This document shows, piece after piece, positions 17,481 through 20,531 of a stretch of DNA of 64,000 bases. The translations under genes were made by a program, and so were the position numbers. The first letter of the stretch is position 1; every line of letters starts with the position of its first letter. The stretch comes from Escherichia coli. GTDB taxonomy: Bacteria; Pseudomonadota; Gammaproteobacteria; Enterobacterales; Enterobacteriaceae. Below the pieces are notes generated by a model. It searched no databases and was not told the DNA's origin. It saw nothing but the letters and a program-made list of their open reading frames with translations. The stretch lies in the NCBI RefSeq assembly GCF_003334305.1, contig NZ_QOWS01000026.1. One strand, given 5' to 3'.

Positions 17481-20400
17481 ATGCAGGTCAGCAGAAGGCA
17501 GTTCTTTAAGATCTGCGCTGGCGGTATGGCAGGCACCACGGCAGCGGCACTGGGTTTTGCACCCAGCGTAGCGCTCGCGGAAACCCGGCAGTATAAACTG
17601 CTGCGCACCCGCGAAACCCGTAATACCTGCACCTATTGTTCCGTAGGCTGTGGGCTGTTGATGTACAGCCTCGGTGACGGAGCAAAAAACGCCAAAGCAT
17701 CTATCTTCCATATCGAAGGCGATCCGGATCACCCGGTCAACCGCGGTGCACTTTGTCCGAAAGGCGCTGGCCTGGTGGATTTCATCCACTCCGAAAGCCG
17801 TCTGAAGTTTCCGGAATACCGTGCGCCAGGTTCTGATAAATGGCAGCAAATCAGTTGGGAAGAGGCGTTTGATCGCATCGCCAAACTGATGAAAGAAGAC
17901 CGCGATGCTAACTACATTGCGCAAAACGCCGAAGGCGTGACTGTTAACCGCTGGCTCTCCACCGGGATGCTGTGTGCTTCCGCGTCGAGTAACGAAACCG
18001 GCTATTTAACGCAAAAATTCTCCCGCGCGCTGGGTATGCTCGCGGTCGACAACCAGGCGCGTGTCTGACACGGACCAACGGTAGCAAGTCTTGCTCCAAC
18101 ATTTGGTCGCGGTGCGATGACCAACCACTGGGTCGACATCAAGAACGCCAACCTCGTCGTGGTGATGGGCGGTAACGCCGCTGAAGCTCACCCGGTCGGG
18201 TTCCGCTGGGCGATGGAAGCCAAAATTCACAACGGCGCGAAGCTGATTGTGATCGATCCTCGCTTTACGCGTACGGCGGCGGTAGCTGACTACTATGCCC
18301 CTATTCGTTCCGGTACTGACATTGCTTTCCTGTCAGGCGTATTGCTGTACCTGCTGAACAATGAAAAATTCAACCGCGAATACACCGAAGCCTATACCAA
18401 CGCAAGCCTGATAGTGCGTGAGGATTACGGCTTTGAAGATGGCCTGTTCACCGGCTACGACGCGGAAAAACGCAAGTACGATAAATCCTCCTGGACTTAT
18501 GAACTGGACGAAAACGGCTTCGCCAAACGCGATACCACGCTGCAACATCCGCGCTGCGTGTGGAACTTGCTGAAACAGCACGTTTCCCGCTACACGCCAG
18601 ATGTGGTTGAAAACATCTGTGGTACGCCAAAAGACGCGTTCCTGAAAGTCTGCGAATACATCGCAGAAACCAGTGCTCACGATAAAACTGCCTCGTTCCT
18701 CTATGCCCTCGGCTGGACGCAACACTCCGTTGGTGCGCAAAACATTCGTACGATGGCGATGATCCAGCTGCTGCTCGGCAATATGGGGATGGCCGGCGGC
18801 GGCGTTAACGCCCTGCGCGGTCACTCCAATATTCAGGGGCTGACGGACCTGGGGCTGCTGTCGCAGAGTCTGCCAGGTTACATGACGCTGCCAAGCGAGA
18901 AGCAGACCGATCTGCAAACCTACCTTACCGCCAACACGCCAAAACCGCTGCTGGAAGGCCAGGTAAACTACTGGGGCAACTACCCGAAATTCTTCGTCTC
19001 TATGATGAAGGCCTTCTTTGGTGATAAAGCGACGGCGGAAAATAGCTGGGGCTTTGACTGGTTGCCGAAGTGGGATAAAGGCTACGACGTCCTGCAATAC
19101 TTCGAGATGATGAAAGAAGGCAAGGTCAATGGCTATATCTGCCAGGGCTTTAACCCTGTTGCCTCATTCCCGAACAAAAACAAAGTGATCGGTTGTCTGT
19201 CGAAACTGAAGTTCCTCGTCACCATCGACCCGCTGAACACTGAAACCTCTAACTTCTGGCAGAACCACGGTGAGCTGAACGAAGTTGACTCGTCGAAGAT
19301 CCAGACCGAAGTGTTCCGTCTGCCATCGACCTGCTTCGCAGAAGAGAACGGTTCAATCGTTAACTCAGGTCGCTGGTTGCAGTGGCACTGGAAAGGTGCG
19401 GACGCCCCGGGGATTGCGCTGACTGATGGCGAGATCCTCTCCGGTATCTTCCTGCGCTTGCGCAAGATGTATGCCGAACAGGGTGGCGCGAACCCGGACC
19501 AGGTGCTGAACATGACCTGGAACTACGCCATTCCGCATGAGCCGAAGTCGGAAGAAGTAGCGATGGAGAGCAACGGTAAGGCGCTGGCCGATATTACCGA
19601 TCCGGCAACCGGTGCGGTTATCGTCAAGAAAGGCCAACAACTTAGCTCGTTCGCCCAATTGCGCGATGACGGTACAACCTCCTGTGGCTGCTGGATTTTC
19701 GCCGGTAGCTGGACGCCGGAAGGCAACCAGATGGCGCGTCGTGATAACGCCGATCCGTCTGGCCTCGGTAACACGCTGGGCTGGGCATGGGCATGGCCGC
19801 TTAACCGCCGCATTCTGTATAACCGCGCCTCCGCAGATCCGCAGGGTAACCCGTGGGATCCGAAGCGTCAGTTGCTGAAATGGGACGGCACTAAGTGGAC
19901 CGGCTGGGATATTCCGGACTACAGCGCAGCGCCTCCGGGTAGCGGCGTCGGGCCGTTTATCATGCAGCAGGAAGGCATGGGGCGTCTGTTTGCCCTCGAT
20001 AAGATGGCGGAAGGTCCGTTCCCGGAACACTACGAGCCGTTTGAAACGCCGCTGGGAACTAACCCGCTGCATCCAAACGTTATCTCGAACCCGGCTGCAC
20101 GTATCTTTAAAGACGACGCCGAAGCATTGGGTAAAGCCGATAAGTTCCCGTATGTCGGAACCACCTATCGTCTGACCGAGCATTTCCACTACTGGACCAA
20201 ACACGCGCTGTTGAACGCGATTTTGCAACCAGAGCAGTTTGTGGAAATCGGGGAGTCGCTGGCGAATAAACTTGGCATTGCCCAGGGCGATACCGTGAAA
20301 GTCTCCTCCAACCGTGGCTATATCAAGGCCAAAGCGGTGGTGACCAAACGTATTCGTACACTGAAAGTGAACGGCAAAGATATCGATACCATCGGTATTC

Positions 20401-20531
20401 CGATTCACTGGGGCTATGAAGGCGTAGCTAAAAAAGGCTTTATTGCCAATACGTTAACGCCATTCGTTGGTGATGCGAACACGCAGACGCCGGAGTTTAA
20501 GTCCTTCCTTGTGAATGTGGAAAAGGTGTAA
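17481..20531 (+). CDS. fdoG: Formate dehydrogenase-O major (alpha) subunit, selenocysteine-containing
   Basis: Two same-frame ORFs (17481..18068 and 18117..20531) joined through in-frame TGA at 18066-18068 (..ARV-U-HGPTVASL..); twin-arginine signal MQVSRRQFFK; 1016 codons. Confidence 0.93.
18069..18110 (+). other. SECIS element directing selenocysteine insertion in fdoG
   Basis: Stem-loop-capable sequence (GCAAG..CTTGC core) immediately 3' of the in-frame UGA, as required for bacterial SelB recoding. Confidence 0.6.

Follow-up and report, generated by a model that had tools for sequence, protein, structure and literature searches.

The in-frame UGA codon of an Escherichia coli fdoG gene is the known selenocysteine codon of formate dehydrogenase-O and is followed by a SECIS hairpin

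Introduction

To our knowledge, E. coli has only three selenoproteins decoded from UGA, of which FdoG is one, and the internal stop codon of fdoG is a textbook case of recoding. The closest described gene is fdoG of E. coli K-12 (b3894), which has TGA at codon 196 and lies beside fdhD, fdoH, fdoI and fdhE. Mass spectrometry of formate dehydrogenase-O (Fdh-O) purified from E. coli MC4100 detected selenocysteine (Sec) at residue 196 of FdoG, and never cysteine, and in a selC mutant FdoG translation was found to stop at UGA196 (PMC3636253).

Two other genes serve as references. The paralogue fdnG (b1474) encodes the alpha subunit of formate dehydrogenase-N, whose crystal structure is PDB 1kqf. 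It shares the architecture of fdoG, including Sec196 and an N-terminal SRRQFFK, but differs in sequence (77.1% protein and 74.7% DNA identity), in belonging to the nitrate-inducible fdnGHI operon and in its chromosomal location. The second reference is fdhF, whose SECIS element has been dissected experimentally. When the U of UGA is numbered 1, as we do throughout for the SECIS element, a bacterial SECIS is defined by an upper stem-loop that begins 11 nucleotides past the UGA (position 15), a bulged U17 and apical G23 and U24 (PMC8659212).

Here we analyzed a window of 64,000 nucleotides of E. coli DNA (the whole stretch, to which all coordinates refer). A preliminary description of this window had proposed that a gene divided in the list of open reading frames was fdoG, interrupted by a selenocysteine codon.

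Results

A single reading frame interrupted by one TGA

The open reading frame list splits the gene into 17481..18068 (195 amino acids) and 18117..20531 (804 amino acids), both on the + strand and in a common frame. Translation of 17481-20531 gave one frame of 1017 codons, or 1016 residues including Sec196. Its only internal stop is the TGA at 18066-18068 (codon 196), the other stop being the terminal codon 1017, and the ATG at 18117 is the internal Met213. The frame therefore reads as had been described, two listed parts joined by a single TGA; a frameshift or second stop was looked for in the 48 nucleotides that separate them, and none was present.

We compared the product with known proteins, entering position 196 as X. 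Its identity was 99.8% with K-12 FdoG and 77.1% with FdnG, and the FdnG chain of 1kqf aligned with the product end to end (1905 bits). The model TIGR01553 scored 1574.8 bits against a cut-off of 814.2, and the Pfam domains PF04879 (Molybdop_Fe4S4), PF00384 (Molybdopterin) and PF01568 (Molydop_binding) were all found, in a protein of the DMSO-reductase superfamily. The gene has the same length as K-12 fdoG (3051 nucleotides), from which it differs at 29 nucleotides and two amino acids (K689 for S and V963 for A), and its top DNA match, at 100%, was in E. coli strain A7.

17481..20531, + strand: fdoG, encoding the catalytic (alpha) subunit of the respiratory enzyme formate dehydrogenase-O (single frame, K-12 identity, TIGR01553, Pfam domains and 1kqf)

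The division into two parts could be taken at face value, the TGA being a genuine premature stop that leaves a pseudogene or a 195-residue fragment with a decaying frame downstream. A mechanical ORF caller does divide the gene in this way, and termination at UGA196 does happen when Sec-tRNA(Sec) is missing (PMC3636253). Against this, the 820 codons downstream are intact and belong to a product that is 99.8% identical to K-12 FdoG. Together with the evidence on codon 196 given below, this makes a premature stop very improbable, and we regard it as refuted in practice.

The two parts could also be separate genes, with re-initiation at ATG 18117 after the stop at 18068 yielding two polypeptides. 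An in-frame ATG does stand 48 nucleotides past the TGA. However, coding conservation extends over the 16 codons between TGA and ATG (HGPTVASLAPTFGRGA), and in the crystal structure these codons fall within one FdnG chain. Inspection by eye revealed no purine run resembling a Shine-Dalgarno sequence upstream of 18117 (GGTCGCGGTGCG), and division into two polypeptides would cost the enzyme its catalytic Sec-His pair. We consider two separate genes even less probable than a premature stop.

Operon context and identity of the isoenzyme

The flanking genes have the canonical arrangement, with fdhD on the opposite strand followed by fdoG-fdoH-fdoI-fdhE. The assignments below rest on protein family models and on the RefSeq annotation of the identical locus.

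16454..17287, - strand: fdhD, sulfurtransferase for formate dehydrogenase maturation, divergent (TIGR00129, 340 bits; annotation)
20544..21446, + strand: fdoH, iron-sulfur (beta) subunit (TIGR01582, 478.7 bits; annotation)
21443..22078, + strand: fdoI, cytochrome b556 (gamma) subunit (NF007924, 453.3 bits, vs 243.6 for the FdnI model; annotation)
22075..23004, + strand: fdhE, formate dehydrogenase accessory protein (NF002925, 604 bits; annotation)

Orthology to K-12 FdoG, synteny and the preference of the gamma subunit for the FdoI-type model identify the gene as fdoG, of the O isoenzyme, rather than its paralogue fdnG. The RefSeq/PGAP label for this locus is 'fdnG'.

A simple scan of the operon for promoters and terminators gave none above the expectation from shuffled sequence. 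No tRNA genes were found within the window, and the sel genes lie outside it. Every one of 5426 complete E. coli genomes had selB and 5425 of them had selC, and selA is annotated adjoining selB.

Codon 196 is the selenocysteine codon

The alignment with FdnG, which had been suggested as a check, confirmed the position: codon 196 aligned with U196 of both FdoG and FdnG, with X196 of 1kqf and with U140 of FdhF. The following residue was also shared, codon 196 and His197 corresponding to X196-H197 in the FdnG structure and to U140-H141 in FdhF. Among the matches listed, which came from many genera, 116 of 120 homologues had TGA at this codon. For a stretch of 201 nucleotides around the TGA, 5423 records showed identity of 99% or more, and each of the 5426 complete E. 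coli genomes contained a match. A premature stop is difficult to reconcile with a TGA held in common with fdnG, fdhF and these homologues, with a segment conserved in every E. coli genome searched, or with Sec196 as seen by mass spectrometry (PMC3636253).

18066..18068, + strand: UGA codon 196, recoded as selenocysteine, molybdenum ligand according to published work (alignments; mass spectrometry, PMC3636253)

These data confirm that the apparent stop is the known selenocysteine codon of formate dehydrogenase-O, an ordinary and already described feature. Because the TGA that splits the gene is a selenocysteine codon with an RNA hairpin signal after it, fdoG is intact. The statement in the preliminary description that the gene is no pseudogene thus held, with the conservation across 5426 genomes, the near-universal selB and selC and the published mass spectrometry behind it.

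A SECIS hairpin follows the UGA

The Rfam model SECIS_3 (RF01989) matched at 18063-18121, where it scored 84.3 bits (gathering score 63; E = 1.4e-18 over the entire window), a match far beyond chance and a further point against a premature stop. SECIS_2 gave only 28 bits on the same element. In the minimum free energy (MFE) fold a hairpin was present 3' of the TGA, with the upper helix beginning at G15 (18080), as it also does in the Rfam alignment. U17 (18082) was unpaired, and G23 and U24 (18088-18089) lay in the loop. The minihelix consists of G15-G16 paired with C31-C32, the bulged U17 and a 5-bp stem (AGCAA/UUGCU) closed by the apical loop G23-U24-C25 (18088-18090).

18063..18121, + strand: bacterial SECIS element inside the coding sequence, codons 195-214 (RF01989; identical to the K-12 fdoG and fdnG SECIS)
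18080..18097, + strand: upper SECIS minihelix, the probable SelB-binding part (MFE fold, covariation and the definition in PMC8659212)
18069..18111, + strand: full SECIS hairpin with lower stem (18069-18078 with 18103-18111; register uncertain in E. coli)

In the Rfam register, the lower stem has two mismatches in E. coli, A-C at 18070/18110 and A-G at 18074/18106, and in the MFE fold its register is shifted by one relative to Rfam.

The secondary-structure check that had been proposed gave a divided result. The hairpin did appear in the MFE fold, but its energy could not be told from that of shuffled sequence: 18066-18110 folded at -11.9 kcal/mol (z = -1.18), 21 of 200 shuffles folded as well, and longer windows gave z between -0.07 and -0.60, none of these being significant. 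Folding alone was therefore indecisive, and the evidence for the element comes from the covariance model and from covariation. A long-range helix (GUCGAC...GUCGAC) that encloses the SECIS in a 101-nucleotide MFE fold was set aside, its upstream arm varying synonymously across genera.

The proposed comparison with known SECIS elements was borne out. The sequence is identical to that of fdnG, and the element of fdhF has the same GUC-UGA-CAC-GG context, with U17, G23 and U24 equally distant from the UGA and G-G/C-C pairs closing the minihelix in both. The upper stem of fdoG has 5 bp and a 3-nucleotide GUC loop, 18 nucleotides in all (15-32), whereas that of fdhF has 4 bp and a 4-nucleotide GGUC loop, 17 nucleotides in all (15-31). 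The lower-stem sequences differ, and at the protein level identity to FdhF is only 33.5%.

Covariation across species

Homologues were collected across species with a pattern of amino acids only, which yielded 63 distinct TGA sequences among the matches listed. The upper helix was paired in 100% of them, compared with 27-61% pairing in slid controls. Pair 21-33 was GC in 48, AU in 11 and GU in 4 of these 63 sequences, and pair 24-30 was AU in 45, CG in 15 and GC in 3. Compensatory double-sided changes occurred at two pairs of synonymous sites (29 cells), a level reached in none of 500 shuffles. The sequences are related by phylogeny, and the search pattern fixes four of the seven upper-helix pairs, so that only the free positions are informative. 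Within these bounds, the compensatory substitutions support the upper helix at the level of sequence. The lower stem was 87% paired across species and showed no double-sided changes.

U17, G23 and U24 were invariant in the distinct TGA homologues, and the third base of Thr200 was G in 111 of 111 sequences (both among the matches listed). At least four homologues among the matches listed have a Cys codon in place of TGA; their downstream peptide is nearly unchanged (Ala for Ser at 203), yet G15, the GU loop and two base pairs have been lost. An apparent association (A/T against C/C) linking codons 198 and 209 at their third bases was left uncounted, since genomic G+C content alone could explain it.

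These results bear on the idea that a near-cognate standard tRNA, for Trp or Cys, reads the UGA while the hairpin merely slows the ribosome. Low-level read-through of UGA occurs in E. coli, and UGA followed by C is regarded as a weak context for termination. This idea does not account for SelB determinants (U17, G23 and U24) that do not vary in any of the 63 sequences listed, and the unremarkable stability of the hairpin does not fit a generic stable structure. The absence of Cys at residue 196 in mass spectrometry and the termination there in the selC mutant also contradict it (PMC3636253). We consider near-cognate reading as improbable as two separate genes.

The N-terminal signal

The preliminary description had assigned a twin-arginine (Tat) signal to the N-terminus. 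By inspection, residues 4-10 are S-R-R-Q-F-F-K, with one deviation from S/T-R-R-x-F-L-K (F for L), and they are followed by a hydrophobic stretch, ICAGGMAGTTAAALGFAPSV, and by A-L-A at residues 31-33. The N-terminus closely resembles that of FdnG in 1kqf, and weak matches (E = 5e-4 and 1e-3) came from the N-termini of NapA and PhsA, both Tat substrates. The motif thus stood, but generic Tat profiles stayed below threshold: TIGR01409 reached 7.7 bits (cut-off 16.7), and the Pfam TAT_signal domain was not reported. Because such models are short, scores below threshold are not strong negative evidence.

17481..17579, + strand: putative Tat signal peptide, residues 1-33, MQVSRRQFFK with hydrophobic core and A-L-A (motif and resemblance to FdnG; predicted cleavage site)

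Export of FdoG is presumably Tat-dependent. A periplasmic orientation of FdoGHI has been described (PMC6239281).

An identical block that extends beyond the SECIS model

The longest run of identity between fdoG and fdnG, genes that are 74.7% identical overall, is 71 nucleotides (18063-18133) and starts 3 nucleotides before the TGA. This block was invariant in 21 diverged Enterobacterales loci from many genera, which had been picked for a shared 59-nucleotide core. It extends 12 nucleotides beyond the Rfam SECIS model, and almost all the flanking synonymous sites vary. A constraint at the nucleotide level beyond the SelB-binding minihelix, with an additional role for the lower stem and 3' flank, is one possible explanation, though we hold it to be unlikely. 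Alternatively, gene conversion between fdoG and fdnG may homogenise the SECIS segment.

Discussion

We conclude, with a probability of about 0.98, that UGA196 of fdoG is read as selenocysteine by means of the downstream SECIS hairpin. The present analysis shows the reading frame, orthology, aligned Sec residue, SECIS match, key nucleotides and covariation; SelB binding, competition with release factor 2 and molybdenum ligation are taken from publications. We found nothing that contradicts this reading.

In the proposed mechanism, the mRNA just 3' of UGA196 would fold into the SECIS, presenting U17 and G23/U24 on a minihelix that begins 11 nucleotides on. SelB carrying Sec-tRNA(Sec), the tRNA coming from selC, would bind this minihelix and, as published work indicates, would compete with release factor 2 in bringing its tRNA to the ribosomal A site. 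Once incorporated, Sec196 would serve as the protein ligand of molybdenum in the bis-MGD cofactor. When selenium or the sel genes are lacking, translation would be expected to end at codon 196.

The cross-species check illustrates how an RNA signal can be carried in synonymous codon positions, and it adds no new biology. If the constraint on the longer block were real, the lower stem and the 3' flank could, for example, tune the efficiency of recoding on the ribosome. For annotation, the locus should be given as one selenoprotein of 1016 residues with a transl_except at codon 196, neither a pseudogene nor two open reading frames, and the correct name of the gene is fdoG, though automatic pipelines write fdnG.

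The interrupted reading frame belongs to fdoG

We analyzed the gene at 17481-20531 (+) using a 3.4-kb query, which was matched in all 5426 complete E. coli genomes, best by strain A7 (100% identity). The neighbours of the large-subunit gene in the strain A7 record are frvR, yiiG, fdhD (divergent), fdoH, fdoI, and fdhE, and the order around K-12 b3894 (fdoG) is the same. NCBIfam models identified the divergent upstream gene as FdhD and the genes 3' of fdoG as those for the beta subunit of formate dehydrogenase, for its gamma subunit (cytochrome b556), and for FdhE; the gamma subunit scored 453 bits with the FdoI-type model and 244 with the FdnI model. 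The protein falls in TIGR01553 (1574.8 bits; cut-off 814), contains the Pfam domains Fe4S4, molybdopterin, and MGD-binding, and is 99.8% identical to K-12 FdoG, 77.1% to FdnG, and 33.5% to FdhF. Two substitutions distinguish it from K-12 FdoG, K689 for S (19545-19547) and V963 for A (20367-20369). The RefSeq/PGAP label at this locus is 'fdnG, formate dehydrogenase-N subunit alpha' in all listed E. coli records; the fdoG locus in NZ_CP028767.1 (4182-7232), for example, is labelled fdnG although fdoH, fdoI, and fdhE come next. The gene is fdoG, and the systematic fdnG label is a naming artefact of a shared equivalog model.

A mechanical ORF list divides the gene in two:

17481..18068 (+), first listed ORF, 195 aa
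18117..20531 (+), second listed ORF, 804 aa

Translation confirmed exactly what the preliminary description had claimed, that the two ORFs share a frame joined through a single in-frame TGA. The 1017 codons of 17481-20531 lie in one frame whose only stops are codon 196 (TGA, 18066-18068) and the natural end; the additional stop or frameshift that we looked for in the 48 nt between the ORFs was absent. The ATG at 18117 is the internal Met213 of this frame.

The proposed twin-arginine signal was partly verified. Residues 4-10 are S-R-R-Q-F-F-K, followed by a hydrophobic stretch and by A-L-A at residues 31-33, and FdoG and FdnG have nearly identical N-termini; generic Tat profile models stayed below threshold on FdoG (TIGR01409, 7.7 vs 16.7 bits; Pfam, no match). 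FdoGHI faces the periplasm (PMC6239281). A Tat signal on FdoG is plausible and consistent with known biology.

Codon 196 occupies the selenocysteine position

Alignment paired codon 196 with U196 of K-12 FdoG and, as anticipated, of FdnG, and with U140 of FdhF. In chain 1kqf_A of the FdnG crystal structure its counterpart is X196, a non-standard residue within the conserved DNQARV-X-HGPTVASL. The context GUC UGA CAC GG is common to all three K-12 genes. Zorn et al. examined purified Fdh-O and Fdh-N by mass spectrometry: in FdoG as in FdnG, position 196 held the Sec specified by UGA, and Cys was never seen. According to the same paper, translation stops at UGA196 when Sec-tRNA(Sec) is lacking (PMC3636253). 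That the two listed ORFs are two genes with re-initiation is contradicted by the homologous structure, which is a single chain, and by the published mass spectrometry, and likewise by conservation and the specific SelB determinants.

A SECIS hairpin follows the TGA

The Rfam model SECIS_3 and the minimum free energy (MFE) fold place the following elements 3' of the TGA:

18063-18121, SECIS_3 (RF01989), matched end to end, 84.3 bits (gathering score 63; E = 1.4e-18 for the full 64-kb window)
18080-18097 (+), upper hairpin in the MFE fold

Counting the U of UGA as 1, the upper hairpin consists of G15-G16, a bulged U17 (18082), a 5-bp stem AGCAA/UUGCU, the apical loop G23-U24-C25 (18088-18090), and C31-C32. 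The predicted stem-loop stood as to the fold and the model score; its free energy did not differ significantly from that of dinucleotide shuffles (z = -1.18). According to a review of bacterial SECIS elements, the upper stem-loop starts 11 nt from UGA (nucleotides 15-31 in fdhF), U17 is bulged, G23/U24 are apical, and SelB contacts U17 and G23 (PMC8659212). The suggested comparison with fdhF showed U17, G23, and U24 at the same numbered positions in fdoG, whereas the fdoG stem is one base pair longer and its loop has 3 nt. Near-cognate read-through of UGA196 is contradicted by these specific SelB determinants, as well as by conservation, the single-chain structure, and the mass spectrometry.

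The lower stem of E. coli has two mismatches in the Rfam register, A-C at 18070/18110 and A-G at 18074/18106, and in the MFE fold its register is shifted by one relative to Rfam. In folds including upstream sequence, CGUG (18060-18063) pairs with CACG (18069-18072), leaving UGA in a 5-nt loop and competing with the base of the SECIS lower stem. This helix is probably incidental, because the Arg194 codon ends in T or C, varying across species.

The upper helix covaries across species

We scanned one genome per GTDB species with the pattern TGH CAY GGN CCN ACN GTN GCN NNN NNN GCN CCN AC, which sets only the peptide (U/C)-H-G-P-T-V-A-x-x-A-P-T and leaves third codon positions free. At least 120 loci matched, from Alpha-, Beta-, and Gammaproteobacteria and one Geobacter relative; among the 120 loci listed, the codon at the Sec position was TGA in 116 and TGC or TGT in 4. 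In an alignment of 63 distinct TGA-containing 59-mers from the loci listed, 100% of upper-helix cells were paired. Two upper-helix pairs consist of free synonymous positions alone and show substitutions in both partners (columns 21-33: GC 48, AU 11, GU 4; columns 24-30: AU 45, CG 15, GC 3). None of 500 shuffles reached the observed pairing or covariation score, counts that are not probabilities because the sequences are mutually related, and pairing fell to 27-61% when the partner was shifted by 1 to 3 columns. Despite the kinship of the sequences, complementarity at the free positions is exact.

U17, G23, and U24 were invariant in the distinct TGA homologues among the loci listed, and the third base of Thr200, which must be G for pairing with C32, was G in 111 of 111 sequences among them. 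Third-position entropy in the four-fold degenerate codons 201-205 was about 0.8 bit vs about 1.3-1.9 bit in comparable flanking codons. The lower helix was 87% paired across species with no double-sided changes; the results for the two helices are in line with published work, which regards the upper minihelix as essential.

At least four FdnG/FdoG-like homologues, all in Enterobacterales, have a Cys codon (TGC or TGT): Klebsiella sp. L057, Pectobacterium betavasculorum L095, the Enterobacter MAG locus L107, and Brenneria roseae L113 (L-numbers denote loci retrieved from other genomes). Their downstream peptide is nearly the same, C-HGPTVAALAPTFGRGAMT, with Ala for Ser at residue 203. G15 is replaced by C or T in three of the four, G23-U24 by CG or CT, pairs 18-30 and 21-27 are disrupted in one or two of these homologues, and the SECIS hairpin was not found in their MFE folds. 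In this small sample (n=4) the changes go in the direction to be expected of a nucleotide pattern that serves Sec insertion rather than the protein. TGA copies are present as well, on further contigs of the Klebsiella sp. genome (L058) and of the Enterobacter MAG (L108 and L109). An uncultured Enterobacterales MAG (L035) has two TGA/SECIS formate dehydrogenase genes (2250-2284 and 8164-8198); they lie on one strand at a distance of about 5.9 kb, and their SECIS sequences differ slightly.

A 71-nt block is invariant between fdoG and fdnG

The comparison with the K-12 fdnG SECIS revealed identity throughout 18063-18133 (+), a 71-nt run twice as long as the next (36 nt) in genes that are 74.7% identical in DNA. 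In codons 195-214, all 18 degenerate same-residue codons are identical vs 57% gene-wide, giving a naive chance of about 4e-5. The block goes 12 nt (ACCAACCACTGG) past the Rfam model. The same 59-mer occurs in 20 loci (Photorhabdus, Providencia, Yersinia, Citrobacter, Enterobacter, Klebsiella, Superficieibacter, Escherichia albertii), where nearly all flanking third positions vary and the invariant run is again 18063-18133; the block is unchanged across 21 diverged Enterobacterales loci. These loci were selected for the shared 59-mer, so that information comes solely from the 12-nt extension and the divergence of the flanks. The extent, greater than the minihelix needs, could reflect lower-stem function or constraint, codon bias, or gene conversion, and is unlikely to be something new.

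Other RNA features of the window

A sub-threshold match to RF02778, 'FdoG-1 5' UTR thermometer', lies at 17274-17510 (+; 34.7 bits, gathering score 50; E = 4e-7 locally), covering the fdhD-fdoG intergenic region and the first 30 nt of fdoG. Its well-aligned part comprises the Shine-Dalgarno, AUG, and first codons; in the model, GUGAC/CGAAUG segments further upstream are their pairing partners. Besides SECIS_3, Rfam matches above the gathering score were CsrC, Spot 42, ES222, STnc370, and naRNA4 (REP-type), with coordinates 53564-53817 (-), 54846-54964 (-), 46534-46641 (-), 44576-44644 (-), and 8917-8987 (-); sub-threshold REP-like naRNA4 and ES036 matches lie just 3' of fdhE, at 23207-23289. 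A search for tRNA genes in the 64-kb window found none.

The TGA is conserved together with selB and selC

A 201-nt segment around the TGA was matched in 5426 of 5426 E. coli genomes, at 99% identity or more in 5423 records. tRNA-Sec (selC) was present in 5425 of 5426 and selB, adjoined by selA, in 5426 of 5426. The single genome with no selC match, one plasmid-borne selC, seven plasmid matches of the fdoG/fdnG segment, and E. coli genomes with three copies of it were also observed. That the TGA is a true stop and fdoG a pseudogene, which the preliminary description had denied, is contradicted by this conservation, the near-universal selC and selB, and Sec196 in the mass spectrometry (PMC3636253), and also by the SelB determinants and the single-chain structure.

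The best explanation, with a probability of about 0.98, is that UGA196 is recoded as selenocysteine in a manner dependent on SelB and the SECIS. The Sec-position alignment, SECIS_3, covariation, and published mass spectrometry all bear out UGA196 as the expected selenocysteine codon of formate dehydrogenase-O, and Sec recoding in fdoG is textbook biology, already known.
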